64,000 bases of DNA, from contig OX597826.1 of assembly GCA_951406725.2 (NCBI GenBank), positions 23,498,001 through 23,562,000 of the forward strand. Direction: 5' to 3'. The notes beneath the pieces are model-generated. The model was not told the origin of the DNA. It saw only the letters and a program-made list of their open reading frames with translations, and searched no databases. Of this stretch, positions 5,965-62,205 are shown in pieces. How positions within the stretch are numbered: the first letter of the stretch is position 1; each line of letters starts with the position of its first letter. The translations under genes and the position numbers were made by a program. This stretch comes from Octopus vulgaris. Its lineage: Eukaryota.

Positions 5965-8529
5965 TTTTGATTTTGATTTTTCCAGTTTCAGCTCATGAGC
6001 TGTGGCCATGCTGGGGCACCGCCATTTGGTTTGCTACATGATTTTACCTCACGAATGCTTTTAAGCAACTGCCATTTGGTGCATGAGAGAGTTCGATGCA
6101 GCTGCCCTCATCTGCACCTCCTGCCGTGAAGTTGGTTCATCCGGGACACCTGACAGGAAGAGATCCAGTCCTACTTTAAAGACATCCGCATCTACACCAT
6201 GCAGGTCCCTCAGGTTCTTCGGGAGGATATTGAAGAGCTGTGGGCCTCTGAAGCCCAGGCTATCACAGTATCTTGTCCTACATCTTGATGGCAAATTTGG
6301 AGTCCTTGGTACCACGCAGTGGCGCCCGGTTCTGGCATTTGTGTGACTCTCGATGCCAAAGTTTGGGACAAGTCCCTCCAGGATCTTCCAGATATATATT
6401 ATGGCATATCTTTCTCGCCTTCGCTCCAAGGAATAGAGTTTTAATCTCTTGAGTCTTTCCCAGTAGCTTATATGCTGCACATAGGCTATCTTCTTCGTGT
6501 AGCTTCGTTGGATCGCCTCAAGTTCTGTGATCAACTTGACACTGGATGGTGATCATAGCTGAGAGCAATAGTCAAAGTGGCTTAGGACAAGTGTCTTCCA
6601 GAGGACCATCATGGTTTCTTGTTCTCTTGTTCTAAGGGTTCTAAGAATCCATCCGGCCAGCCGTCTACATTTCATTGCCAGTTTAGCAACATGTACATGA
6701 AAGGTTGCGTCATCACTCATGTGAATACCCAGGTCACGCACTGATTGTGCCTCTGGGATTGCAATCCCTCCGGGTCCAGTGTATTCATTGGGTATTGCAT
6801 TCAGTTTTGCATGCTGATAGCATAAAGCTTGAAACTTTTCAGCATTGAACTGCATGCTATTCTTTTCAGCCCACTTGTATATTTTGTCCAGCTCACATTG
6901 CAGGTACTTAGTGTCTTCAGGGTTCTGTATTGCCTGTGAAACTTTTGTATCATCTGCATAACTTGTGATCGTGGCTCTCTGCGTGGCTGAGGGCATGTCT
7001 GAGAGGGCCATTATGAACAGTAGTGGTCCCAAAACAGTGCCCTGCGGAACACCGCTCACTATTTGCGTGTTAATGGAAGTGGCCCCATTGGCTACTACCA
7101 CCAGACTTCTATCCTTCAGAAAGTCATGAAGCCATTCTCCCAATTTTCCAACTATGCCAAGATCACGCAGTTTGTGACATATCATTCCATGATCGACTTT
7201 ATCAAAGGCCTTTGCAAAGTCGAGATATATGACTTCCACATTTGAGTGGTTGAGCAGTCGTTTCAGCACCCAGTCATAGTGTTGTAGGAGCTGAGTTAAG
7301 CAGCTTCTTCCTGGTCGGAAACCATGTTGGGTGTCAGGCAGCAAGTCATTTTCTTCAAGGAAGGTGATTAGTTTCCTTCTAACTATTCGTTCCATGACCT
7401 TGCTGATGTGTGAGGTCAGAGAGATAGGTCTGTAGTTCTTGGCCTCCGCTCTGCTACCTCCTTTATGAATAGGGCATATTTTACCTTCCTTCAGTTTTCT
7501 TGGAAGTTTGCCAGTTGCAAGGAAGCTCTGAAAGAGAGACTGCAGTGGTCTTGCTAGGACTCTCTTACATACTTTTAGAAGGATTGCCGGGAATCCATCG
7601 GGGCCAGTAGCTGAGTTTGTTTTCATCTCATCTATAGCCTTTATTACATCGTCTTCCTTTATATTGATGTAATCAATCATCGCCGCCTCTTACCCCATAT
7701 CTGCAGTGGTGAAGAAGTCAGTTGGATTGCTGATTTGGAAATGCCCAAGGGGTGGGGTGAAAACACTCTCGAATTACTCATTTAGTATTTCACTTACCTT
7801 CATTGGATTTCCTGTGAGTGTGCCATCCCTTTCAAGGAGTGGCCCTATCCTACAGTGCACCGTAGCTGTTTCTTTGGCATACCTGTAGAAATCTCTGGGG
7901 TTAGATTTTATGTTGTCTATAGCCCAGGCTTCTTTGCCTGCTCTTTCCTTTTCATGGGAGAGTTGCAGACATTTTTCAATTTCCAACAGTTTCATTTTCA
8001 GGCGGGACTTTTCACTGCTTTCAATTTGTTTGTTTAGGCGATTTGAGATTTTTGTACGCCGTCTCATTAGAATTTTCCTCTCTCTGGGGATTTTGTTCTT
8101 GTGTACAGTGGCCTTTCTCTCTGGGACACATTTGTAGCATATGGCTTGCATTACAGACATGAATTGTTGAAGTTTCATGTCGATGTCTGGCGAGGAGAGA
8201 CATTCAGGCCAGTTTTGTTTGAGGATCTCTTTCTCAATTTGTTTCCAGTTTGCCTTATTGAAGTTCAAGCTGGAAAGATTCTGAGAGTTTCTTGTAGGCT
8301 GCATGTTCATGCTTTCCTTTGGCCCGTACATGGTCAGCTTTACCATGTTGTGATCCGAGAGTAGTGTCGGTGTCACTTTCACATTATGGATGAGATCCAT
8401 ATTATTTGTGAAGCAGAGATCCAGTGTGTTACCTGCCCTGGTTGGTTGGAATATTACTTGCTCCATGTACAGGGTGTTGATGAGGTTCAGGAGGGACCTC
8501 GCCTGTCCTCGTTCACATCGTGTCATTCC
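5965..8529 (-). mobile_element. CR1-group LINE (APE C-terminus + RT), 5'-truncated, disrupted
   Basis: QPTRAGNTLDLCFTN (APE end), NYRPISLTSHISKVMERIV, QHGFRPGRSC, LDFAKAFDKV, GVPQGTVLGP, YADD. 3' tail is (AAAATC)n on the minus strand. Confidence 0.92.
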
Positions 8530-8555
8530 ATATATATATATATATATATATATAT

Positions 8556-8756
8556 GGTGAGAATTTACAAAAAAAAAAAACAAAAAACAAAAGACGAAGA
8601 CGGGTGTGTAAACAACAAATAGATGTATTAGTCTAACACTCGGGAAGTGAGAAAGTCTTTTACGTTTCGAGCCTACGCTCTTCGACAGAAAGGAACATAG
8701 AAATAAACAGGAAAAAAACATAAATAAGGTTTAGTGGCCCAGCGTTCTATCATAGC

Positions 8757-11374: not shown

Positions 11375-12860
11375 TATGTAGCGGAAGAGTCCGTGGGCTT
11401 GCAACTAGGCACCTGGAGAGGCAAGTCCATGCCATCCAACAGCGTCGTAGGGCGCTGGACAGACGGACCCGTTAAACTGCTCGGGGTCTGGTTCGGTCCG
11501 GACCTCCAGGTGGATAAAAACTGGGAAGAAGTGACGAGCAGGATGACCAATCTCACCTAGAAATGGGCCGAGAGGAAGCTGTCCCTGAAAGGTCGAGCAG
11601 AGGAGACGAATGCGTACATCGTATCCGTCATCTATTACCGCTTGACCGTCGTCCCTTGTCCCGACCGCTGGTTGGCCAAGCTGGTGCGCTTGCTCTTCGA
11701 CTTTTTGTGGAAGGGTCAGGTACTACAGGTCAGGCGATCCATCTGCTGTCAACGACCGCTGAACGGAGGCCTTGGCATGCCGTGGTTACTGATGCGCAGA
11801 CATGCGCTCAGGCTACGGCATCTCAAGCGTTTCCTAGACAGCGAACAGGTGTGGTCGTCTTTTGTCAGACCCGATTTTCCACAGCTCGTCTCTTTGACAG
11901 AGCTGCAGACCTGGATCAAACGTAGACCGAGGAAGGGCGCTTGGCACCTCGAGTGCCGTCAAGCTCTCTCCGCCCTCCGCCAGGCGGGCAATGCGATCGG
12001 TTTTAGTTCCACTCTAGCGTTCTATAGAGGGTTAGTGGAAGAAAAGTGCGACGACGTTCTCGGGGAAACTCTAGGCGTTGACGATAACGAGCTGAGCAGT
12101 CTGTTCGGGAGGACTTTCGGGCCGGGGCCAATGGATAATTTCCAGAGGTCCCTCGCCTGGCAGTGCTACCGAGGGGTTCTGCCTGTTCGAGATAAACTCT
12201 ACCGACACGGAAATGCCGTCAACCGGACCTGCCCGAGGTGCTGCCAGGACGACGAAACCGCTCTGCACGCACTCGTCCAGTGTCCGAGTATTGCTGAACT
12301 ATGGGTTTATGTCGAACAGCTACTGTCGTGTATAGGACGGATCCGGCTATCAGCTGAACCCATAGTGAGGATTGCCCCGCCGACCTCCTTTAACCGGGAG
12401 GGCAAAAAGTTTTCCTTTGCCTAGTGGCTGTAGCGAAAGAGGTTGTATGGTGGACCCGTTTGAAAGGGCTAAGGTCAGACACTTTCCTCTTAGAAAAGGA
12501 AGATGAGCGTAGAGAGGGAAGTGCTGTCCGAAAGCAAGTTTAATGAAAGGTGGATAAATGTCGCAAGAATAGCCAGTATGAAAGGAGCCATTCTGAGGTT
12601 ACACCTGTCATTTAAAAAGGTATTACAAAAGGAGAAAGGGGATCTCTACCCCGCTTTTGACCAGGCTCCTGTTGGCTTTTATGGGTTTTTTCCACCAGGA
12701 ACCTTTCATAACGCCTCCCCCTATTGGGAGTTTTTCGTTGTTAAACTGCTTTTTTTACTCGGATTTTACAAACGGACAAAACCCTTTGTAACCTTTCGTC
12801 CTGTTTTGTCCTTTTATGTGATAATTGATTTTTTTTCAGCCCTTGTGGCCAATAAAAGAA
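11375..12860 (+). mobile_element. Tx1/L1-clade LINE, 3' fragment
   Basis: LSLKGRA..NAYIVSVIYYRL, GGLGMP, zf-RVT-like LPVRDKL..CPRC..ETALHALVQC. 3' UTR ends AATAAAAGAA before (ATT)n. Confidence 0.85.
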
Positions 12861-12930: not shown

Positions 12931-15900
12931 TATGTTTGACTTTTGCTTTATGTTTGTACAAGTTGGCTCCAAGTCTCACCCAGAGACCTCAAGAGACAAC
13001 AGGTTGGAAGTTCACGTTGTTGTTATGCCTAGTGTGCCATATATTTGGGGGTTTTTTTGTGGTGTACTAGTGAATGTCGAATAAATAAATTTTTAAAAAA
13101 AGTTCGTTTTAAACCTTGAGATTACATAGAGAGTATTTTGTGTAGGATATGAGCAGTTCCCATGAGCACTATCTTTTGAATTTCTGCCATTTTTGGGTTT
13201 CCTGGTATCTGAGTTAGGTAGCAACCAGCCCCTTTCGGTATCATTCCCAGGGCACCTATAACAACAGGTATTGTTTTAGTCTTCAGCTTCCACATTTTGC
13301 TGATTTCTATTTCAAGATCTTTATATTTACTCAGTTTTTGGTAGGTCTTGACAGATATGTTTATATCGATTGGGACAGTCATATCAGTGAGGAGGCATGT
13401 TCTTTGTCTGAAGTCTTTCAATATGATGTCTGGCCTGTTTGCATCTATTTTTCTGTCAGTTTGAATGGTGAAGTTCCAGAGGAGTGAGATGTGGTCATTT
13501 TCAAGCACTGGAGGTGGATTTGTTCCCACCAGTTTTTTTCATGGGCAAATCCAGGTTTTTGCAGATTACCCAGTGAATATATTGTGCAGCTGTATCATGC
13601 ATGTTGAGGTACTCTGTAGGTGCTAGAAGACTGCACTTGGAGACAACATGATCAATGGTTTCATTTTGTTGTCGACATACACGACATGTTGGGCTACTGC
13701 CGTTCTTTAATATGTTGGCCTGGTAGTTTCTTGTTGGTAGGCATTGATCTTGAGCTGCTATGATAAACCCTTCTGTTTCAGATTTTAAGCCAGAGGCCAT
13801 TAGCCATTGATGTGTCAGGGCTTTGTCAATATCTGCATTATTCACTCACTTTGGGTATTTGCCATAGAGAGGTTTTTCTTGCCATTTGTTATTCAGAATA
13901 TCTAAGGCCGCAGGTTTGGCACGGGTTTTCATGCGCTTAGCTTTTTCAGTGCTTGTTTCTTGTATGACTATCTCTAATTCCGAAATTTGTTGTATTCAGA
14001 ATTCACTTAGATATTCCTTTGCCTGTTTTGTTACTGAGTATGATGCTTTCTTGTTTTCATGTTTTGAGACAAGTTTTAACATCCAGTCCTCAGAGTTTTT
14101 CAGGTAGGTGTCTAGGCCAATTGTAGCAATCTTCATTGTTATTGCCAGTTGTAAAAGACCACGGCCTCCCTCTTTTCTTGGCAGATAAAGTCGTTCTGTA
14201 TCTGCCTTAGGGTGGTGCATTCTATGCATTGTCAACAGTTTTCATATTTTTCTGTCAAGCTGACATATTTCAATAATTGACCAGTTAACGATATTGAAAC
14301 TGTAAGTCACGACTGGTATGGCTAATGCATTGATCGCTTCGATCCTGTTTCTTGCCTTCAGCTCTGTCTTGAGTATTGCTCTCACTCTTCGATAACATTC
14401 TCTCCTGATCCTTTCCTTCATCTCTGAATGCCTTATTTTGTCCCCTTTAATTACCCCTAGGTACTTGTAGTTCTCCGCTGGGTCTAGTTCTTTTATGACA
14501 TTTTGTTGGTCAATGTTAACGTTAGATGTTTCTGTCATTTTTCCTTTGATAAAGGTAGCTTTTGCACATTTATCGAGGCCAAATTGCATTCTGATGTCGA
14601 CACTGAATTGTTTGACTATCGCTAGTAAGCCCTTGAGTTGTTGGTCATTTTTTGCAAAAAGCTTTAAATCATCCATGTAGATGAGATGATTTACATTTTG
14701 ATCAAACATTTTATACCCGTACTGCGCGTCATTGAGCAGTTTTGAGAGAGGTATTAAGGCTAAACAAAAGAGGAGTGATGACAGTGAGTCACCCTAGAAA
14801 ATGCCACATGAAATTTTTACCTCACCAGCATTTAGAGATTCATTGTCACTGTTCAGAGTTAGTGTGGTTCTCCATGATCTCATACTTACAGTCAAAAAGT
14901 TTCGCAGAGTAGGTGCTATCTTATACATTTCCAAGCATTTCATAATCCAGCTATGTGGTAGGCTATCAAAAGCCTTTTTATAGTCTATCCAGGCTCTTGA
15001 TAAGTTTTTGTGTCGTTTGTGACAATCTTCTAAGATCATCTTATTGATGAGTAGTTGATCTTTACAACCGTAGGATCCACGTTTACATCCTTTCTGTTCA
15101 TTAGGGAATATGCTGCTGTCTGTTAAAAAACTATAAGTATATTCCGTCAGGACAGATGTTAGCGTTTTATACATAGCTGTTAAGCAGGTTATGAGTCTAT
15201 AGTTTTTTGGTTCATTTGTTTCTTCACTTTTTGGAAGCAGGAATGTTAACCCATTAACTAGCCAAGGAGGCATCCTACTAGGGTGTTGCAAAACATCATT
15301 GTACAGTTCTGTTAGCAGTTCATGGCTCTCTGGAAAGGCATTCGGCCAGAAGTTAGAAATTTTGTCCTTTCCTGGAGACTTCCATTTGCTTGACCTCCCG
15401 AGAGCAGATCTTATATCTTCTACCTTGAGACCCTCCCACTTTTGCTCTTCTAAGGAGTCCAGTTCTGTAGATATTCTGTCAATCCAGGGGGCCTTTTCGT
15501 TGTGTGTTTTTTCTTCTGCCCAAATTTTATTCCAAAATCACTGCACTTCTTTTGATGGTACAGACCTTACAGTAACTGCTGTTTTTCCAATCTTCCTGTA
15601 AAAATTTTTGGGGTTATTTTTTAACATGTTGTTGTCCTTGAAAAATCTAACACGCTTTTCATACCTCGCTATGCAGGCAGCTTTGGCAGATACCTTTTGT
15701 TTGATGGTTTCTATGGTGGCATCAATATCAAGTATAGTTTTCATATTGTATTTTTTCATTAATTTTTGGGTTTTTGTAGGTTTGGTAGTCTTGTGAACCT
15801 TAAGGTTTTTCAAATATTCAATGTCAGATCTAAATAGTTTAATTTGTTGTTGCAAACGCTCTTGCCAAGAAGGCTTTTTGTGGGAATGTTGCCGTTTTCT

Positions 15901-16851
15901 AATCTTTACACCACATAGGATCGTTGAGATTTTCGCGGATGCATAGTATAGGTGGTTGAGATTTGTGATATCAACATCATTAGCTGAAATTATATCCTTA
16001 AGTGCAAGCCGGATTTTACCAATTATTTTCATGTTTTGGTTAGAGTTGCGGATTTTAGGGAGTGCATCGCATTCATCCATGCTGGTTTCTTTAGTTTTCA
16101 GCCATTCAATCATGATTTAATTTTTTAGCTCATGTAGTTCTGTTGGGTCAATATTTGTGTGACTTTCTTTATCTATTTGATGTTCATCTGTCTTAGTGTT
16201 TATGAATGGTTCAAGGAGTATTTCACTTTGCCTATCACTTATACTAACTCTTTCAATCCTTACTTCGTTTATATCAGCCCTGGGCTGGTCTATAATTATT
16301 TCCTCTGTATTATCTTCTCTAGCTGCAGCTTCGTTCATTTTATCCGTTACTGCTTGTCTAACTTGATCAATCTCTACTTCAGTAGGTAATTTTTTTTTAT
16401 AATGTTTCTTCTGACGTTGGCAAGTTTGTTACTGTCTATGTAGGGTCTTGCTTCAGTGTGTTTCTGTCTCCAGTTTAAGTATGTTTGTGCAGTGTTAGGT
16501 TTATCTGTGGGGAAATATATGGCATGGTAGAAGGCCGCAAGAACTTCTTTATTATCTTCCCTAGACCATTTTTCCTTCTTTTTCTTTTGATTATTTGGTG
16601 ACGAGCATGGATGGCCATCTGTTGGAATATTCCGGTTGTGGGGTACGTCCAGCTCCTGTGTGTTGGGAAGATTTGATCCAGTAGCTGATTTTTCAATCAG
16701 AATTTGGTTCAATTTTCGGATACGTGGTCTTTTGTAATCCGCGCGATAACCAATGCGGTTTGTAGCTTGTTTTGTTGACATTGAAGTATGACGAGCTTCC
16801 ACTCTTAGATTAGGAGATGGATCTGTCAGTTTAGGGTTCTCTACACGTAAG

Positions 16852-16852
<1 letters not shown>
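12930..16852 (-). mobile_element. R4/Dong-type non-LTR retrotransposon (RT + CCHC + restriction-like endonuclease), near full length, disrupted
   Basis: WIDYKKAFDS, YMDDLKL, HPKAD.ERLY..RKEGGRGL, ETEGFIIAAQDQ, CRVC..ETIDH..C, RPDI..D..P..KY.DL..EI, PVVIGALG. Flanked by (ATT)n on both sides. Confidence 0.92.
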
Positions 16853-16894
<42 letters not shown>

Positions 16895-25054: not shown

Positions 25055-25815
25055 TATATGATTGATTGATTGATTGATTGATTGATTCTAGTTTCAGCTT
25101 ATGAGCTGTGGCCATGCTGGGCACCGCCATTTGGTGTTGCTACTTGGTTTTACTTCACGAAAGCTTTTTAGCAACTGCCATTTGGTGCATGAGAGAGTTC
25201 GATGCAGCTGCCCTCATCTGCACCTCCTGCCGTGAAGTTGGTTCATCTGGGACACCTGACAGGAAGAGATCCACTTCCATTTTAAAGACATCTGCATCCA
25301 CCCCATGCAGGTCTCTCAGGTTCTTCGGGAGGATATTGAAGAGCTGTGGGCCTCGGAAGCCCAGGCTATCACAGTATCTTGTCCTACATCTTGATGGCAA
25401 ATTTGGAGTCCTAGGCACCACGCAGTGGCGCCCAGTTCTGGCATTTGTGTAACTCTCGATGCCAAAGTTTGGGACACGTCCCTCCAGGATCTTCCAGATG
25501 TATATTATGGCATATCTTTCCCGCCTACGCTCCAAGGAATATAGTTTTAATCTCTTGAGTCTTTCCCAGTAGCTTACATTCTGCATAGAGGCTATCTTCT
25601 TTGTGTAGCTACGCTGGATCGCCTCGAGCTCTGTGATCAACTTGACACTGGATGGTGACCATAACTGAGAGCAGTAGTCAAAGTGGCTTAGGACAAGTGT
25701 CCTCCAGAGGACCATCATGGTTTCTTGTTCTCTTGTTCTAAAGGTTCTGAGAATCCATCCGGCCAGTCGTCTACATTTCATTGCCAATTTAGCAACATGT
25801 ACACGAAAGGTTGCG
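25055..25815 (-). mobile_element. Second copy of the CR1-group LINE, 3' ~0.7 kb
   Basis: Translation nearly identical to 6061-6700; (AATC)n tail. Confidence 0.92.
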
Positions 25816-27044
25816 GTCTAATTAAGTTAGAATATTTAGAGTGAGGATAGAGACAGCAATTGTCCAAATGAATGCCTGCAATTGGTTGGAGGACCAATGT
25901 TTGATAGAAAGTTTGCACTTTCGGCGTCGTTCAAGTTATTTAGATAAATCAACCCGTTTGACTCGGTGAATAAAAACAAAATGGAGACTGGCTACATGTT
26001 GTAGTACATGGACTCACAAGCCTCGTTTTCATTAGTTGAGCTAACAAATATTCCTTAAGGTACAACAATTTGATGAATTGCAATCGGTGTTAATCACAAC
26101 TTGAGTCAGATTTCAATTCTGAACACATGCTAACGATATACATTTTACAGATTATTTTAGAATTGAATAATAATAATTGTTTTGTATAAAACTGAATCAA
26201 GGAACCGGACTAAGAATTGTTGAGAGCTGGATCCGACTCACCAGCCGTATGTATGTTATCCCTGCTCTTAGTGATATCTCGACCTGTTGGAAAAAAGCAG
26301 CAAACTCTCCCTTACATCACATTCTACTGTCTTAAAACAAGAAAGTCAAACGAGATAATATAACCTTAGAGATAAATTTCGGAATTGGCGTAGTTGGAAT
26401 GTCTGTAACCATAGATTGCTTTGATCAAGGTTGACTTGGGGGTTAAAAAAAAAGCAACAATGACAGCACGTATGAAAATTGATTGCAACAATTATCGTTC
26501 CGTGAAGTTAACTTGTTCTCATAAAAACATCTAGAGTTAGCGGTTGTGTAAAAACCTTAGAATTATACAGAATGAATTTCCAGAAGTTAATCTCAAATAT
26601 CTTAATATAGGGCGTCTCTATTGTGTAAAAGACAATGGTAAATGCAGAACAAAGTATTTAGTATAACATTCTTCCGTCTTGCCGAGACAGGATAATGCAA
26701 AAATTCTTGTATCATTATATTCTTGCTTCTTTTGTTTGAGACGAAAATTGAAAATTTATTAAAACCACGATGGTATCTGATGGTATCTGGCGCCAACCAA
26801 AAGAACCTATCCTACTTATAAATTATTTGCAAAACTGAAGCTGCTTGCAGCATTAATGAAAAATAACTCGGTGGAACTGCAAAGATGCTTCAAGATCGCA
26901 TGCAGTTATGACTACCAAATAGTCTCTTCAACAATGTATCAGTTATAAAAGATGGTGGAATTTATTAATTAGTTAAAATGAGGAGAGGAAGCGCTCCTGA
27001 ACATTTAGCCTCCACTTCTAATAATAGTAATAATAATAATGATA

Positions 27045-31650: not shown

Positions 31651-31703
<53 letters not shown>

Positions 31704-31786
31704 GGTCCCGGGTTGATTCGGGGTTAACCACAGTAAGTAAGGTACTCAATACATAGCAGAGTAAAATTAATTTATTATATAGAAGG

Positions 31787-31837
31787 AGCTTCTACAGGAC
31801 TAGTACTGTTTCATTCAAGAGAAATCTTCAGGAAGCT
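31787..31837 (-). ncRNA. Type I hammerhead ribozyme motif (left arm terminus)
   Basis: Minus: AGCTTC CTGAAGA TTTC-TCTT-GAAT GAAA CAG-TACTAGTC-CTG TA GAAGCT. Confidence 0.8.
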
Positions 31838-32999
31838 ATTTAACAAGAATTGTATTAGCATTTATACATTTAGGCAGGTTTAAAGGAGTGGTGGTGGGGG
31901 ACTTTTTGGGGGTAGGCATAGCGCAAAATATCATACTTGGGGGAGTGGTCAAGGAGTCAGTGGTAAGTTAGATGAAAGAATAGATAAATAAAAAAATAAA
32001 AAAATAAAAAAATAAAAAAATAAAAAATATATATAAAAAATATATATATAAAAAATATATATATAAAAAAATGGGGGGATAGAGTTATAGGTAAATAAGG
32101 AGATTCTCACTTATACCTATACACACATGTATACGTATCTACACACACATACATACATACACATATATATACACACACATATATATACATATATATATAT
32201 ATAATACACACATACATACATATCTACATACACACATACATACACCCGCCCACATATACAAATTTATACACATGCACATGCCTATACCTGTCTACACATA
32301 CACACACGTATATATGCATACACTCACTCCCATGCATGCACGCATACACACATGTATATATATATATATATACCCACGACCACACATACATATATACACA
32401 TAAAAATATATATTCATACGCACATACACTCATGCACACACAACACACCTAGTTCCCTATATACACATATTTACACCTATATATACATACACCCACATAC
32501 ACCTATGTACACATATATATATATAAACATATACACGCATACATATATATACATGTGTGCACATACATACATACACACATATATACATACACATACACAT
32601 ACACATGTGTACCTATACATACCTACACATACACACATACATACATACAAATATACGTATACATATATATATATACAATCCAATACAGGCCCATTCCCTA
32701 ATTTTAATTTTATTATCTTCATTTATTACTTTTGTTATCTTTGATCGCTAGAGCTAAGAATCCTGGCAATGGCTGCATGTCCATTTGTCTGTCTACTAGA
32801 AGGCAAGTACTCATTCCCGCACGCACACTCATTAGCACGTACATTCACCCATTCGTACACTCATACACATACACGTACGCACGCGTTATATTCATACATA
32901 CAAACATCTACATACGTTCACGTATATACACATACGTACTCGTACCTACAGATTCGTGTCTACACTTTAGGAGGCTAGTCTATACATATACACCAATAA

Positions 33000-33044
<45 letters not shown>

Positions 33045-33094
33045 CACATATACATACACACACACACATATATACTCCTACATACAGATACATA

Positions 33095-33137
<43 letters not shown>

Positions 33138-33319
33138 CACATACATACACATACACACATACATATACACACACATACATACACATATATATACATACAC
33201 AAACATATATACACACATATATATATACATACACACATACACACATACATACGTATACATACATCCATACATCCATACATCCATACTTACATGCATTTAT
33301 ACGCATACACACACCCATC

Positions 33320-33350
<31 letters not shown>

Positions 33351-33631
33351 TCACACATACATATACAAATCTACGCACACACATACATACATACATACAC
33401 GTATACGCATACACGCACATACACATATACATGCGTACCCATACACGTGCACACACGCACGCGCATCCATATATATACACACACACACATATATATACAC
33501 GTGTGCAAGCATACATACATACTCATACGCGCACACATACTTACATATACATATATGCACACACTTACACACATATATATACATACACATATACATGCAT
33601 ACATACATATATACATACATACACACACGCA

Positions 33632-33673
<42 letters not shown>

Positions 33674-33736
33674 TATATACATATATACATATATATACAC
33701 ATACATACACATACACATACATACACACATATACAC

Positions 33737-33768
<32 letters not shown>

Positions 33769-33981
33769 TATACACATACATATATACACATATACATACA
33801 TATACATACACACACACATACATATATACATATACACTGATACACATACCCATACATACACATGCATATACTTATATCACTACATACTCACATATATAAA
33901 CATATATACATATACACATACATACATATACATGTATATACACATACGTATGCATATATATATATATACATATATATACAC

Positions 33982-34016
<35 letters not shown>

Positions 34017-34670
34017 TACATATACACATATACATGTATACATACGCAAAAATGATACACATATATACACATACACACACACAGACAGATGCATATACAT
34101 ACATATATATATATAAACTACATATCTATATAAATACATACATAATACACATATACACACACATATATATACATTCCTGCATATACATATACAAGTATAC
34201 ATACACATACATACACACACACGCGCACACATACATATACACACACACATATACAAATACATACATACACACATACACACACACATATATATATATATAT
34301 ACATACATGTACACATATACATATGTATATATATATCAACAAGGGAGGGTAAAGTTAATTAGTTATTAATCAATTTCATCAAGTGTTCAGTATGTAAAGG
34401 GACCATTATTATTTTGAGTAAACAATGTTAGAGGGAAAAAAATTCTCTAAGTAGTGGAAGAGGCTAAAAAACTTTATTGGCTGCTATTTCTAGAAAGTTT
34501 AGTATGTGGCAAAGTAATTTATTTTATTTTCCTAAGCCCTAATTATATAATATTTTATACATACATACACATACATAAGCACATACATTTACACATACAT
34601 ATGCATATACATATATACACATATACATACAAACACATATACACATATACACACACACACACATACAAGC

Positions 34671-34713
<43 letters not shown>

Positions 34714-34962
34714 AATATATATACATATATATTTTTACATGCATACATACACACACACACACATAATACATGCGTATATTCCTACTGTACCCATGCATTT
34801 CTATACATATATACATACATACGATACACATATACAAGCGTGCACATATAATATGTGAAAGGTCTTAGGAGAAAAGGTAATCGGGGGTGCTAGGGGAACA
34901 GTGGGGTTGGGGGGGGGTTGTAGGGGGGGTTGTAGGGGGGGGGGTTGTAGGGGGGGTTGTCA

Positions 34963-36310
34963 TCAATCAGGTTGCCGGGTAGGTCTATAGTTCTTGTAGT
35001 TCGCATACTTCTTATGCATGCAATTTGGGGAGTGTTCTGAAAATTTGTTAAGGAGAGGGCCTTTGGCGAACAAGATCTCTAGGCTCTCTGATATGCATAG
35101 GTCACAGCAGGTATGTCCTCCTGTGTACGAGCGCGCCTTCTGTAGTAGTTTCCACTTGGTCTTGAAGGGGATTGAGTTCCTTTTAAGGTACCAGATGTGG
35201 GCGGCGAGGGTAGTTTGGTTGGATTTATCCTGTCGCCGGAACGAGTGTGTATGTGCGTACCAGCGGGTCTTAAAGCTGTTTGACGTCATTCCAATGTAGG
35301 ATTTACTTTTATCGTCAAGGCCTGATCTTACCTCGCATTTATATACTAGGTCCCTCTGTAGGCAGTTGTTGTTGAGGGGGCAGGTGGTTTTATCATGGCA
35401 GTTGCAATTGCTATCGGACGTTGGATGGGCCCCGGAGAAAGTAGATATGTTAAGTTTTTTCACATTGTTGTTGGCTAGGTTCCTGGCTAGGTTGGGCGTG
35501 GTAGAGTAGGAGAGTCTAATAGTGTTCTTATTTAGGATAGTGTAGTACTTATGTTGGGTGGGGAAGTGTTTCTGTAGGAGAGTGAAAAGATCTTAGCTAC
35601 AGGTGTAGCGACCTCACGGTTGAAGGGGGGTTGTACCAGCTAATGTGTCTTCGTCTATTTTTCCTGGGTTGGCGTGGGGCTATACTAGTGTAGGTAATCT
35701 TATCTTTAAAACCACTGCGGGCCAGGGCCTCGTTGTAATAGGGGGCTGCGGCCTTAAAGATATCTTCCGTGGCGGACAGGCTAGAGATTCTAATTGAGAC
35801 ACTTTTTACTAGGTTATCTAATATATTTCTGGGGTGGTTGGAATTGATATCTATATATCTAAGGGATTCATTTGGTTTGTGGTACGGGTAATAAAGTGAG
35901 GTTTTTAAGTCGAGGGTGACATCTAGGAAGTTAGCCTTTGTTAAGTTGGATTCTAGGGTAATCCTAAGGCCTAAGTTTTTAAAGAAGGTGTGAAGATTTT
36001 TCCGGAACCCATCCGTGGTCCTGGGGTTTATATTGTGGAGGGCGAAAAGGCCGTCATCTCGGTAAAGACCACCGGAGAGGCCTGTGAATAGGGTTTTCAG
36101 CCTATGGAGGATGAAAAGGCCCACTAGGTCACTTATTTCAGCAGAGTCGTTAGCACCCATGCTGACGTCGAAGGGGGTCACAGATTTTTTGTTGATCCAG
36201 TGGGATCCGTCATAGAAAAGAAAAGTCTTACGTGCGTGGAGGATCACATCTTGCTCGGCCTCGGTGATGGTGGAGGACCTCCTGGCGAAGTTAATCGCAT
36301 CGATCAGCAA
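34963..36310 (-). pseudogene. PLE RT C-terminus + GIY-YIG, split by a 1-nt frameshift at the YNPP(F) poly-C
   Basis: ORFs 35597-36310 and 34963-35463 join (YNPPFNREVATPVAK..) if one C is restored. Confidence 0.85.
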
Positions 36311-36376
36311 GCTCTCCGATATAGAGGCGTAGTAATCCTCGATATCCAGTTGTAGGAATCGGGTGTTGCTTAAAAA

Positions 36377-37584
36377 CCTCGACTTAAAAACCTCACTTTA
36401 TTACCCGTACCACAAACCAAATGAATCCCTTAGATATATAGATATCAATTCCAACCACCCCAGAAATATATTAGATAACCTAGTAAAAAGTGTCTCAATT
36501 AGAATCTCTAGCCTGTCCGCCACGGAAGATATCTTTAAGGCCGCAGCCCCCTATTACAACGAGGCCCTGGCCCGCAGTGGTTTTAAAGATAAGATTACCT
36601 ACACTAGTATAGCCCCACGCCAACCCAGGAAAAATAGACGAAGACACATTAGCTGGTACAACCCCCCTTCAACCGTGAGGTCGCTACACCTGTAGCTAAG
36701 ATCTTTTTCACTCTCCTACAGAAACACTTCCCCACCCAACATAAGTACTACACTATCCTAAATAAGAACACTATTAGACTCTCCTACTCTACCACGCCCA
36801 ACCTAGCCAGGAACCTAGCCAACAACAATGTGAAAAAACTTAACATATCTACTTTCTCCGGGGCCCATCCAACGTCCGATAGCAATTGCAACTGCCATGA
36901 TAAAACCACCTGCCCCCTCAACAACAACTGCCTACAGAGGGACCTAGTATATAAATGCGAGGTAAGATCAGGCCTTGACGATAAAAGTAAATCCTACATT
37001 GGAATGACGTCAAACAGCTTTAAGACCCGCTGGTACGCACATACACACTCGTTCCGGCGACAGGATAAATCCAACCAAACTACCCTCGCCGCCCACATCT
37101 GGTACCTTAAAAGGAACTCAATCCCCTTCAAGACCAAGTGGAAACTACTACAGAAGGCGCGCTCGTACACAGGAGGACATACCTGCTGTGACCTATGCAT
37201 ATCAGAGAGCCTAGAGATCTTGTTCGCCAAAGGCCCTCTCCTTAACAAATTTTCAGAACACTCCCCAAATTGCATGCATAAGAAGTATGCGAACTACAAG
37301 AACTATAGACCTACCCGGCAACCTGATTGATGACAACCCCCCTACAACCCCCCTACAACCCCCCTACAACCCCCCTACAACCCCCCCCCAACCCCACTGT
37401 TCCCCTAGCACCCCCGATTACCTTTTCTCCTAAGACCTTTCACATATTATATGTGCACGCTTGTATATGTGTATCGTATGTATGTATATATGTATAGAAA
37501 TGCATGGGTACAGTAGGAATATACGCATGTATTATGTGTGTGTGTGTGTTTGTATGCATGTAAAAATATATATGTATATATATT

Positions 37585-37625
<41 letters not shown>

Positions 37626-38281
37626 GCTTGTATGTGTGTGTGTGTGTATATGTGTATATGTGTTTGTATGTATATGTGTATATATGTATATGCATATGTA
37701 TGTGTAAATGTATGTGCTTATGTATGTGTATGTATGTATAAAATATTATATAATTAGGGCTTAGGAAAATAAAATAAATTACTTTGCCACATACTAAACT
37801 TTCTAGAAATAGCAGCCAATAAAGTTTTTTAGCCTCTTCCACTACTTAGAGAATTTTTTTCCCTCTAACATTGTTTACTCAAAATAATAATGGTCCCTTT
37901 ACATACTGAACACTTGATGAAATTGATTAATAACTAATTAACTTTACCCTCCCTTGTTGATATATATATACATATGTATATGTGTACATGTATGTATATA
38001 TATATATATATATGTGTGTGTGTATGTGTGTATGTATGTATTTGTATATGTGTGTGTGTATATGTATGTGTGCGCGTGTGTGTGTATGTATGTGTATGTA
38101 TACTTGTATATGTATATGCAGGAATGTATATATATGTGTGTGTATATGTGTATTATGTATGTATTTATATAGATATGTAGTTTATATATATATATGTATG
38201 TATATGCATCTGTCTGTGTGTGTGTATGTGTATATATGTGTATCATTTTTGCGTATGTATACATGTATATGTGTATATGTA

Positions 38282-38320
<39 letters not shown>

Positions 38321-38525
38321 GTGTATATATATGTATATATATATATATGCATACGTATGTGTATGTACATGTATATGTGTATGTGTGTATATGTATATAT
38401 GTTTATATATGTGAGTATGTAGTGATATAAGTATATGCATGTGTATGTATGGGTATGTGTATCAGTGTATATGTATATATGTATGTGTGTGTGTATGTAT
38501 ATGTATGTATATGTGTATATATGTA

Positions 38526-38558
<33 letters not shown>

Positions 38559-38623
38559 GTGTGTATATGTGTGTATGTATGTGTATGTGTATGTATGTGT
38601 ATATATATGTATATATGTATATA

Positions 38624-38665
<42 letters not shown>

Positions 38666-39153
38666 TGCGTGTGTGTATGTATGTATATATGTATGTATGC
38701 ATGTATATGTGTATGTATATATATGTGTGTAAGTGTGTGCATATATGTATATGTAAGTATGTGTGCGCGTATGAGTATGTATGTATGCTTGCACACGTGT
38801 ATATATATGTGTGTCTGTGTATATATATGGATGCGCGTGCGTGTGTGCACGTGTATGGGTACGCATGTATATGTGTATGTGCGTGTATGCGTATACGTGT
38901 ATGTATGTATGTGTGTGCGTAGATTTGTATATGTATGTGTGAGTGTGTATATATATATATATATATACATATATATAGATGGGTGTGTGTATGCGTATAA
39001 ATGCATGTAAGTATGGATGTATGGATGTATGTATGTATGTATACGTATGTATGTGTGTATGTGTGTATGTATATATATATGTGTGTATATATGTTTGTGT
39101 ATGTATATATATGTGTATGTATGTGTGTGTATATGTATGTGTGTATGTGTATG

Positions 39154-39203
<50 letters not shown>

Positions 39204-39253
39204 TATGTATCTGTATGTAGGAGTATATATGTGTGTGTGTGTATGTATATGTG

Positions 39254-39302
<49 letters not shown>

Positions 39303-40107
39303 TTATTGGTGTATATGTATAGACTAGCCTCCTAAAGTGTAGACACGAATCTGTAGGTACGAGTACGTATGTGTATATACGTGAACGTATGTAGATGTTT
39401 GTATGTATGAATATAACGCGTGCGTACGTGTATGTGTATGAGTGTACGAATGGGTGAATGTACGTGCTAATGAGTGTGCGTGCGGGAATGAGTACTTGCC
39501 TTCTAGTAGACAGACAAATGGACATGCAGCCATTGCCAGGATTCTTAGCTCTAGCGATCAAAGATAACAAAAGTAATAAATGAAGATAATAAAATTAAAA
39601 TTAGGGAATGGGCCTGTATTGGATTGTATATATATATATGTATACGTATATTTGTATGTATGTATGTGTGTATGTGTAGGTATGTATAGGTACACATGTG
39701 TATGTGTATGTGTATGTATATATGTGTGTATGTATGTATGTGCACACATGTATATATATGTATGCGTGTATATGTTTATATATATATATGTGTACATAGG
39801 TGTATGTGGGTGTATGTATATATAGGTGTAAATATGTGTATATAGGGAACTAGGTGTGTTGTGTGTGCATGAGTGTATGTGCGTATGAATATATATTTTT
39901 ATGTGTATATATGTATGTGTGGTCGTGGGTATATATATATATATATATACATGTGTGTATGCGTGCATGCATGGGAGTGAGTGTATGCATATATACGTGT
40001 GTGTATGTGTAGACAGGTATAGGCATGTGCATGTGTATAAATTTGTATATGTGGGCGGGTGTATGTATGTGTGTATGTAGATATGTATGTATGTGTGTAT
40101 ATATGTA

Positions 40108-40152
<45 letters not shown>

Positions 40153-40547
40153 GTGTGTGTATATATATGTGTATGTATGTATGTGTGTGTAGATACGTAT
40201 ACATGTGTGTATAGGTATAAGTGAGAATCTCCTTATTTACCTATAACTCTATCCCCCCATTTTTATATATATATATTTTTATATATATATTTTTTTATAT
40301 ATATTTTTTATTTTTTTATTTTTTTATTTTTTTATTTATCTATTCTTTCATCTAACTTACCACTGACTCCTTGACCACTCCCCCAAGTATGATATTTTGC
40401 GCTATGCCTACCCCCAAAAAGTCCCCCACCACCACTCCTTTAAACCTGCCTAAATGTATAAATGCTAATACAATTCTTGTTAAATAGCTTCCTGAAGATT
40501 TCTCTTGAATGAAACAGTACTAGTCCTGTAGAAGCTCCTTCTATATA

Positions 40548-40552
<5 letters not shown>
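36377..40552 (+). mobile_element. Inverted copy (right arm) of the same PLE
   Basis: Reverse complement of ~31770-35915, with identical peptide sequence (36830-37330 = 34963-35463). Confidence 0.95.
40486..40536 (+). ncRNA. Type I hammerhead ribozyme motif (right arm terminus)
   Basis: Stem I AGCTTC/GAAGCT, core CTGAAGA 40492-40498, GAAA 40511-40514, stem III CAG/CTG, GUA site. Confidence 0.8.
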
Positions 40553-40606
<54 letters not shown>

Positions 40607-40810
40607 AGTAGGTGAATGAATTATCCTATGTTTATCGTCAGCATGGAAAATTCGTTTAACCGAAACCTGGGTAGCAAATTCACGTCAGAAAACACGGTTG
40701 AAGCGACCTGTCAAGGGTAGAAACTCCGGGTTCATGTGTAGAAATTTGTGTGTTGTATATGAATAAATGAAAGAATGGAGTCGAACGAAGATGTTAACAA
40801 AATTCCTTTA

Positions 40811-40892
40811 CTCTCGACACATGTTTCGAAGACAGCATGTTTTCATTCCAAAGGAATAAAGGGTGCATTATGCAATCTTCTCATCAGGAAAG
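40811..40892 (-). ncRNA. Hammerhead ribozyme motif, minus-strand copy in the hairpin
   Basis: Reverse complement of 40971-41052. Confidence 0.8.
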
Positions 40893-40970
40893 AAAGGGAG
40901 CCTCTCTCGACAACAAGACAAACAAAAAAGCGATAATGAGTGTGTATTGTTGTTGAGAGAGGCTCCCTTT

Positions 40971-41052
40971 CTTTCCTGATGAGAAGATTGCATAATGCAC
41001 CCTTTATTCCTTTGGAATGAAAACATGCTGTCTTCGAAACATGTGTCGAGAG
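40971..41052 (+). ncRNA. Type I hammerhead ribozyme motif with canonical core and expanded stem II
   Basis: CTTTC CTGATGA GAAGA-(43 nt)-TCTTC GAAA CATGTG TC GAGAG; GUC site at 41045-41047. Confidence 0.82.
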
Positions 41053-41150
41053 TAAAGGAATTTTGTTAACATCTTCGTTCGACTCCATTCTTTCATTTAT
41101 ATATATATATATATGTTGATATTAAAATTAATATTAATTTATCTCCCTCA

Positions 41151-42919: not shown

Positions 42920-43097
42920 TATTTAAGTATAATTATATAAAATATAATTATAATAAGGGCGCTGAAACGACAACGCCTGCACGCTAGAAATAGACCCAAA
43001 ATGGTCCACAAAGCACTTAAGTTATTACTCCAGCGTGCAGGTATTGTCGTTTCAATGCCCTTATTATAATTACATTTTATATAATTATACTTAAATA
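42920..43097. repeat. Imperfect inverted repeat, ~66-bp arms
   Basis: TATTTAAGTATAATT..AAGGGCGCTGAAACGACAACGCCTGCACGCT vs AGCGTGCAGGTATTGTCGTTTCAATGCCCTT..ATACTTAAATA. Confidence 0.85.
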
Positions 43098-60240: not shown

Positions 60241-62205
60241 TGGCACATCATGTATGATGTGATGTGTAAAGTCGTGTGGTGTAGTGTGGAGAGAGGAGAT
60301 GAGGGGGTGGGGGGGGAGGGGAGGAGGAGGAAGGAGGAAAGAGGGAGAGGGGGAGAGAGAAGGGGAGTGAGGGAGCAGAGGGAAGGGGAAGAGGGAAGGA
60401 GGGAGGGAGAAAGAGGGAAGAAGGGAAGGGGAGTAGGGGTGAAAGGATGAAGGACTGAAGAAGTAGGGGTCGGGGGAAAGATAGGTGAGGAGGGGGAGAG
60501 GGGGGGTTAGATGAGGAGGGGGGAGAGTTGAGACCAAATGGCTTATAAGAGCGAAGAGAGAAGATTAATTCCTGTTCACGGCGCAAACGGGAATCCGGAT
60601 GGCCTCTGTGTAAGGACAAACCGAACACAGATAGGTGTTGCAAGGAGTGACCGGTGGAGCGGTAATGGCGAGAGACCGGTGTGCCGTTCGCAAGGTGGAT
60701 GTCACGAAGGTGTTCCGCGAACCGGTCAGCCAAGCGGCGTCCCGTTTGTCCGATGTACAAGGAATGGCGGAGAGAGAGCAAGAGACGCAATAGATAATAT
60801 TGCTGGAGGTGCAGGTGAAGGAGTGGATGATGGGATAGGGTCGATGATGGGTGCTAGTGAGGAGGGTGGTGTTGGAGAGGTAAGGGCAAGTGCGGCAACG
60901 TGGGCGGGAGCAGGGGAACGAGCCGGGTTGGGAGGTAGGGTCAGGGAAGGAGCTATGGACCAAAAGGTCTCGAAGGTTGTGGGCTCGTTTGAAAGAGGGG
61001 AGGGGTCGGTTAGGGAAGAGGTGTGAAGTGGACGGGTCGGACTGGAGATGACGGAAAGCTCGAAGAATGGTGCGTTGGAGAGGTAGGGTCGTGGGGTGGT
61101 AAGTGAGGGGAAAAGGGAGGCGGGAGACTACAGGGCGGGTACGGGGAGAGAGAGCAGATACACGGTCCACGGACCGTGCTCTGGCAAGGGCGGTGTGGAT
61201 AGTGGTGAGGGGGTATCCACGTAGGGTGAAGTAGTGAGCCATACGTTGAGACTGAGTCTCAAAGTCATGGTCGTCACTACAGAGCCTACGTAGACGGAGG
61301 AATTGGGAATAGGGGATGGAAAGCTTGGTGTGTTCTGGGTGGGAGGAAGAGAAGTTGAGGTATGAGTGTGAGTCTGTGTGTTTGTAGTGAATGGAGGTGG
61401 TAAGAGTGGAGTGAAGAATGCTAACCGAAATGTCGAGGAAGGAGACAGAGGTGTTGGAGATAGTGGAAGTGAAGTGGAGGGCTGGATGGAAAGATTGGAC
61501 GAAAGAGAGGAAGGAATCTAGATGTTCACGGGAGAGTGAGGTGGCACCGATAATGTCGTCAATGTAACGACCATATAGTTCAGGAGTGGGACCAGTGAAA
61601 TTAGAGAATATTTGGGCCTCAACATAGCCAACGAACAGGTTCGCATAGTTGGGGCCCATTCGCGTTCCCATGGCCACTCCCGAGACCTGATGGTAGAACT
61701 CGCCCGCGAACGAGAAGCAGTTCAGAGTAAGGACAAGTTCGGCCAGACGAATGAGTGTGGAGGTGTCAGGTACAGGGTTGGAGCGGAGGTCAAGAAAGTG
61801 TTGAAGGGCCTGCAGTCCTTCGTGGTGAGGGATAACAGTATAGAGGCTTTGGATGTCCATAGTAAAAAGGATTTTGGAGGAGCCGGGAGGAAAGGAGAAA
61901 GAGTTGAAAAGCCGGAGAGCATGGTTGGTATCGTGGATGTGGGAGGGAAGAGATGCCACTAGGGGGGCAAGGACACGGTCGAGGTATTTAGAGATGAGCT
62001 CCGTGGGGCAGTTACAAGCGGAGACGATGGGGCGGCCAGGGTTGTTGGGTTTGTGGATTTTGGGGAGGAAGTAAATGGCGGGGGTACGTGGGGTTCACAC
62101 AATTAGGTTGGATGCGGTGTGGGGGAGACGGGAGGACGAGATGAGGTCGCGGACAGCAGAGGATACCATCAGTTGGTAGATACGTGTGGGGTTAGAGGGC
62201 AGAGG

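Follow-up and report, generated by a model that had tools for sequence, protein, structure and literature searches.

Results

Two inverted hammerhead copies in a (TA)n tract

The locus lies within the window, that is, the whole stretch of 64,000 nt that was analysed, and consists of two arms (40763-40916 and 40947-41100) of 154 bp each that are inverted with respect to each other and differ by one G-T mismatch. Pairing of the arms reaches 168 nt at 97% once the TA flanks are included, and the hairpin has a minimum free energy of -284.1 kcal/mol (z -41), with none of 100 shuffled sequences folding equally well. The near-perfect arms reported in an earlier note on this DNA, which was made from the sequence alone, are thus borne out. 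The same note delimited a 338-bp unit, and its arm coordinates stand, but the whole insertion is about 500 bp long (40603-41100): the minus-strand copy extends about 155 nt beyond the left arm and the "loop" of the hairpin is mainly element sequence. The features of the locus are as follows.

40549..40602, no strand: (TA)n target tract, left flank, in which an adjacent insertion from another family also ends
40603..40945, minus strand: 5'-truncated sense copy of the element 3' end (pseudo-LTR, hammerhead, tail), 97% identical over 330 nt to a full-length natural copy
40603..40755, minus strand: tail of about 155 nt, on this arm only, leading to the ORF start in tandem copies
40805..40897, minus strand: type I hammerhead, copy 1, recognised by motif, predicted cut after 40816
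40917..40946, no strand: hairpin loop and inversion junction, mainly upstream element sequence (minus strand), placed by comparing the junction with the full-length copy
40947..41100, plus strand: inverted 5'-truncated copy that stops at the "short" 3' end, from arm comparison and end class
40966..41058, plus strand: type I hammerhead motif, copy 2, predicted cut after 41047
40966-40975 with 41048-41058, plus strand: stem I of copy 2
40976-40982, plus strand: core of copy 2
40983-41035, plus strand: stem II of copy 2, 53 nt, unbranched
41036-41039, plus strand: GAAA of copy 2
41039-41046, plus strand: self-complementary 8-mer of copy 2
41101..41114, no strand: (TA)n target tract, right flank

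The minus-strand copy (40603-40945) stops at what we call the "long" 3' end and has a deletion of about 30 nt near 40929. Both ends of the insertion enter (TA)n, and no other part of the family was found within the window. As previously stated, the locus has no ORF (no frame of at least 120 aa).

Both arms carry the canonical CUGAUGA...GAAA...GUC core that had been proposed, with predicted cut sites after 41047 (plus strand) and after 40816 (minus strand). The statement that a hammerhead is encoded on both strands holds in that there are two motifs; each arm has its motif on a single strand, and both strands carry one because the arms are an inverted repeat. A strict motif scan of the window returned these two hammerheads only, and a looser scan two more, both in a neighbouring element. 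The suggested check with a hammerhead covariance model gave no hammerhead match with Rfam, whether in the whole window at the gathering threshold or at the locus at E<=10, and returned only generic hairpin matches, probably because stem II is long. In a read-through transcript of either strand the antisense arm does come first, as had been pointed out. Computed energies also support the claim that hairpin folding would compete with self-cleavage, since the full hairpin is at -284 kcal/mol and the best fold that keeps a ribozyme at -138, about 146 worse.

A long, unbranched stem II and a self-complementary stem III

In the isolated motif, stem I is 10 bp long with a bulge and stems I and II pair at 0.82-0.97. 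Stem II passes a U-U mismatch, continues as GCAU/AUGC (0.62-0.91) and ends in an 8-bp apical hairpin (0.81-0.99). The 43-nt insert noted earlier is present between the 5-bp GAAGA/TCTTC strands, but the branching ascribed to it is contradicted by the fold: the TGCA-TAA-TGCA hairpin pairs at only 0.05-0.07, against 0.62-0.91 for the GCAU/AUGC extension. Of the two mini-hairpins proposed, the TGCA one is thus lost and the ATTCC/GGAAT pairs do form, as the apex of one stem. The branched fold is 2.6-6 kcal/mol worse than the unbranched one. We also compared 12 hand-picked diverged copies from three families (81% mean column identity). The TGCA hairpin is 77% paired in this set with zero two-sided changes, and RNAalifold picks the extension. 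Two-sided changes occur at 11 pairs of the unbranched structure, where shuffling gives 4.6. Pairing reaches 92% in the lower helix of stem II, and alignment is poor (62%) at the innermost pairs of the apex. All 12 copies have a core with little or no variation. Although these sequences are few and related, the comparison supports an unbranched long stem II kept across three sister families.

Stem III had been read as the palindrome ACATGT. This 6-mer places A15.1 in the wrong register, and the stretch useful for catalysis is instead the 8-mer at 41039-41046, from A15.1 to U16.1, which reads ACATGTGT in 47 of 79 pattern matches and is a perfect palindrome, ACATATGT, in 22 of the 79. In a dimer, ACATGTGT and ACATATGT each pair over 8 bp (-6 and -7 kcal/mol, respectively). 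With the form of the 8-mer found in the window, a 6-bp off-register duplex is as stable as the 8-bp dimer helix. Within a single molecule stem III has a pair probability of 0.01, and hammerheads with a weak stem III are described as depending on dimers (PMC7229834).

In 28 new loci picked by their tail, 5' ends at the predicted cut site were found in 0 of 28 main copies and 0 of 16 inverted arms; in the loci collected before, the query had introduced a bias. This absence of a genomic trace of cleavage is in line with the dispensability of the hammerhead for insertion reported in PMC11167929.

The arms are the 3' end of a coding Penelope-like element

A search of the genome (2.8 Gb in 227 contigs) with the arm gave 1764 first-look candidates, and scoring 40 of them yielded 43 matches, 42 of which are 98-100% identical. 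Upstream of the arm we found a GIY-YIG coding end at 9 loci (8 distinct insertions). One copy holds a 785-aa RT-EN frame with YRDD and IYQC...FFYIG motifs, an ORF that is not present at the locus of the window. Four RT(-EN) homologues share 32-35% identity with this frame; among named proteins the closest homologue is from Argonauta, which makes a cephalopod host likely. Pfam recognised neither an RT nor an EN domain in it and a PDB sequence search returned nothing meaningful, and the assignment of both domains is based on motifs and homologues. Another copy shows the order pseudo-LTR, hammerhead, tail, ATG (335 nt past the core), ORF and second pseudo-LTR, with a period of 3205 bp. Pseudo-LTRs from partial tandem copies and 5' truncation are present in the family, as is an inverted 5'-truncated copy at the 5' end with a one-sided tail, which exceeds the published length. 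These sequences identify both arms as 3' ends (pseudo-LTRs) of a protein-coding Penelope-like retrotransposon that is young and present in many copies. The link to Penelope-like elements drawn earlier was therefore correct. The accompanying idea of a non-coding, mobilised unit of retrozyme or inverted-terminal-repeat type is not supported, since elsewhere the arm runs upstream into the RT/GIY-YIG coding end, and the fold-back point and arm length vary from locus to locus.

The protein has motifs of Hydra type, namely DKT (for DKG), RWL (RWK-type), CNIC (CxxC) and CKH (CxH), and insertion into (TA)n is seen across the family, as in the Hydra clade. The CxCX5C linker between RT and EN is absent, with an Asn-rich stretch in its place; it is present in three of the four nearest homologues, the fourth being a partial sequence. 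In the frame L036:350-2704 (P0001) this Asn-rich in-frame insert covers residues about 555-665 and replaces the zinc-finger-like linker. That the family targets (TA)n despite the insert weakens the idea that the linker sets the TA preference. The period of 3205 bp compares with units generally <3 kb in the Hydra clade, the excess being due to the Asn-rich insert and a longer UTR. As the CxCX5C linker is missing, we file the family as an EN+ Penelope-like element of Hydra type and not as a member of the clade. Relative to the publications and homologues compared, it appears to be an undescribed Hydra-like family.

Two sister families (L086-L097 and L098-L109) each gave about 1900-2000 first-look candidates and have the same 55-nt stem II architecture; in one of them the predicted cut site is GUA and the 8-mer is a perfect palindrome. 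None of the public runs that hold the family is listed as RNA; contigs of the family occur in two runs that are RNA by guess, and these are uninformative on expression, ends and editing.

Two fixed 3' ends, paired as one long and one short

Classification of 83 element ends at 68 loci gave 37 short ends, 31 long ends, 11 that run into the ORF and 4 unclassified. The short end lies about 125-130 nt past the core and the long end 156 nt further, and a TA-rich repeat follows the element ends in nearly all rows. Among 26 rows with inverted pairs, 18 could be classified at both ends. Every one of these 18, among them the window, combines a long with a short end (binomial P about 3e-6). Seven of the 8 other rows were dropped because an end ran through or off the locus, and one pairs a short with an intermediate end (425). 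In a test set beforehand on the 28 new tail-picked loci, 16 out of 16 inverted ends within 1.5 kb were short; the other 12 loci had no inverted end within that distance. Both sets together comprise 34 inverted insertions classified at both ends, and all 34 have one long and one short end. The rule was kept in all 6 inverted loci among 10 examined in a sister family, and the neighbouring insertion in the window likewise has one short and one tailed end. A 60-base query for short-end copies returned no match, a result that carries no weight.

Either arm can bear the tail, the longer one doing so in 12 loci and the shorter one in 6. Arms of one locus differ by 2.4% versus 4.3% between loci, which makes them only modestly closer, and gene conversion could be another source of this similarity. 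Of possible twin hairpins beyond each element end there are only weak stems, of -2.5 and -2.7 kcal/mol; their 5-nt loops resemble each other, and their distances are unequal.

An array with fixed A>G changes on the sense strand

A 27-kb tandem and inverted array of the family lies at G000:C20:23.329-23.357 Mb (L083-L085). Of 1066 A sites, 234 show an A>G change fixed in all its units, compared with 15 other fixed changes and zero fixed T>C. The rate depends on the 5' neighbour (U 0.40, A 0.24, C 0.13, G 0.06), a bias that we take to match the pattern of ADAR. The hammerhead core reads CUGGUGA in 18 of 18 alignment rows, some of which re-cover one copy. Nearly all edits are common to forward and inverted pieces (in one comparison of 97 with 96 edits, 95 coincide where 18 would be expected), and the changes are A>G on the sense strand even in the inverted pieces. 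Since the edits are common to forward and inverted pieces, we infer that one sense RNA was edited and that inversion followed editing. Two units are identical, and part of the array is therefore a later DNA duplication or an assembly duplication; rolling-circle copying is possible.

The edited form was recovered in DNA contigs of all four runs examined, from four studies, including contigs of 359-406 bp with 1-2 differences in two runs and one of 669 bp with 10 differences in a third. Among the 42 matches it is restricted to the array locus, and no A>G excess was seen at the other loci screened. Six small T>C flags (8-10 changes each) were raised at five loci, in diverged or run-on alignments. 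In the literature searched, mostly outside subscription journals, we found no direct description of ADAR-edited retrotransposon copies fixed in a genome.

Other elements in the window

A second Hydra-like family, with 44% protein identity and a CxCX5C linker, occupies 31700-40553. It forms a 4.2-kb inverted repeat (31770-35915 and 36377-40553, 98%) with compact hammerheads near both ends (40492, plus strand; 31831, minus strand) that have a GUA site and U-U at the base of stem II. Its 3' region is microsatellite-rich over about 3 kb. Of its two ends, one is again short and the other bears a tail of about 70 nt, and its short end and the hairpin insertion share one common (TA)n tract. We had considered whether the ORF from which the hairpin derives is the neighbouring Penelope remnant at 34.1-38.2 kb, and rejected this on account of its 44% protein identity and the lack of a DNA match.

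Remnants of another RT and GIY-YIG element lie at 574-2749 and 60248-62094 (minus strand), the second with a Pfam RVT_1 match. At 42920-43097 a 69-nt inverted repeat (91%) surrounds a GC-richer core. Frame fragments at 6061-8730, 11561-12424, 13122-16853 and 25155-25817 are, from a look by eye, presumably LINE-type RT and endonuclease.

Discussion

Origin of the hairpin

We are largely confident that the hairpin is a single Penelope-like insertion into (TA)n, made of truncated forward and inverted copies of the element 3' end, both cut DNA ends having likely been primed on sense RNA at two fixed sites. The family, its ORF, its TA target, the two ends 156 nt apart and their pairing as one long and one short can be read directly in the sequences. 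The model of priming at two sites is built on genomic end patterns, and it would run as follows. The GIY-YIG domain would cut both strands of the target, one DNA end would prime at the long site while its partner primes at the short one, each cDNA would stop early, the two would be joined head to head, and a hairpin would form wherever they had copied one stretch. The end rule together with the sense-strand edits of the array points to priming of both cut DNA ends on sense RNA. In vitro, a purified Penelope-like protein cleaves both target strands, extends each of them and initiates at two sites on its RNA (PMC11167929), and by analogy with this Poseidon protein two fixed RNA priming sites may also be used here. 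In the full-length element the ribozyme is predicted to be active, probably by dimerising at the 8-mer or by relying on protein. In the stub it would be locked in the duplex, and the locus is therefore likely inert, except as a possible source of double-stranded RNA.

A more elaborate version, which we put forward tentatively and would not ourselves back at even chances, has an RT dimer prime both cut ends on one sense RNA at the two fixed sites, 156 nt apart. All pieces of the array, whether forward, inverted or tandem, would then derive from a single RNA whose ribozyme had been disabled by editing, maybe a circular or uncut template copied round several times, and the 53-nt stem II, retained in three families through compensatory change, would be a module for protein binding or folding in a hammerhead that acts with the help of protein. 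No direct description of twin priming in Penelope was found in the literature searched, mostly outside subscription journals.

The strongest alternative keeps the insertion and the family and derives the inverted arm from a single cDNA by fold-back self-priming or template switch, or from an antisense template (PMC3846280), with the tail trimmed at endonuclease resolution. This route has already been proposed in print (PMC8557442, PMC3846280), some junctions in a sister family are near-perfect palindromes, and a single RNA would yield one tailed and one tail-less end. Yet many junctions are asymmetric, with the arm starting at unrelated positions, and at L015, L021 and L029 the long arm is the last 45-60 nt of the tail without overlap with the short arm, which a simple fold-back does not predict. 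For the edited array, an antisense template is opposed by the A>G changes on the sense strand and the 0 fixed T>C. We regard this explanation as unlikely, while still a serious one.

A self-standing non-coding unit (retrozyme, MITE-like or a viroid-like rod) whose competing folds control self-cleavage is very improbable. The locus has no ORF, many of the loci fetched are short non-coding stubs and a rod would suppress the ribozyme fold; but junction and arm lengths are individual to every inverted locus, the fetched loci show no short tandem repeat of the unit, and the arms come from a coding element, of which they are the 3' end. The analogy with viroid rods drawn in the earlier note is thus without support, the hairpin being a by-product of insertion. 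Finally, an assembly fold-back artefact is scarcely credible: contigs of 4 public runs leave 40930-40965 uncovered and none spans the window's own junction, but a gap of this kind is what polymorphism of the insertion or filtering of the contig would be expected to leave, and the arms differ at one site, end at two distinct family-specific ends and obey the end rule of the other loci.

Comparison with known systems

Insertion with truncated forward and inverted copies agrees with the published layout of Penelope elements. In typical EN+ Penelope an inverted 5'-truncated copy lies beside the 5' end and the tail is one-sided (PMC8557442, PMC3846280), and for Penelope-13_HM of the Hydra clade an inverted 5' copy is tabulated together with hammerheads on both strands (PMC8557442). 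As described by Craig et al. (2021, PMC8557442), the Hydra clade resembles our family in its protein, with a C-terminal GIY-YIG domain, DKT, an RW motif (in our family RWL) and, around the EN end, CxxC and CxH. It also shares the (TA)n target and a type I hammerhead that lies close to the 3' end and whose stem III is nearly palindromic. The printed N-terminus of the Hydra-1_Obim protein is similar by eye, whereas its hammerhead sequence differs. Our family departs from the clade described there by its Asn-rich insert in place of the CxCX5C linker, its 3.2-kb unit and its tail of about 156 nt, far above the 30-40 bp given in the publications consulted. Its stem II of 52-56 nt contrasts with 3-7 bp and loops of 3-10 nt in 26 Hydra rows of the hammerhead table in PMC8557442, where two non-Hydra PLE-X entries have loops of about 30-35 nt.

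Pen2a of Adineta vaga, as reported in PMC3846280, likewise has direct pseudo-LTRs, an adjoining inverted pseudo-LTR, a tail on one inverted pseudo-LTR and Asn-rich inserts between RT and EN. It has a 31-bp tail and a visible target site duplication, whereas here the tail is 156 nt and any duplication is hidden in (TA)n. The Anolis Poseidon element PAc (Frangieh et al. 2024, PMC11167929) shares two RT start sites matching the tail, an AT-rich target, and a hammerhead that is dispensable for insertion, with no reported reads ending at the cut site. It belongs to another clade and its hammerhead overlaps the ORF start; its start sites are 30-40 nt apart inside the ORF, whereas here both are upstream of the ATG. 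Metazoan non-LTR retrozymes, for which descent from Penelope-like pseudo-LTRs has been proposed, also carry type I hammerheads, with forms of weak stem III that need dimers (PMC7229834, bioRxiv 10.64898/2026.07.22.740005). According to these sources they are head-to-tail repeats of 150-450 bp without an ORF and with circular RNA, in contrast to the head-to-head stub of a coding element seen here, and no head-to-tail hammerhead repeats of 150-450 bp were present in the loci examined.

Implications

By comparison with these publications, the locus is a known kind of Penelope insertion footprint. What it adds is modest: a conserved stem II of 53-55 nt, a tail of 156 nt and a clean end rule that is backed by an editing barcode. 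The earlier note was sound in its call of a hammerhead motif, and the conserved long stem II is one that escapes standard hammerhead models, as the lack of an Rfam match indicates. The family provides a test system for how Penelope elements build their tandem and inverted ends and for the role of the hammerhead. Its useful assets are the strict end rule, with a long and easily scored tail, and the A>G barcode, which reveals the template strand. If the more elaborate reading, with an RT dimer, is true, this family would directly record the mechanism of Penelope integration.
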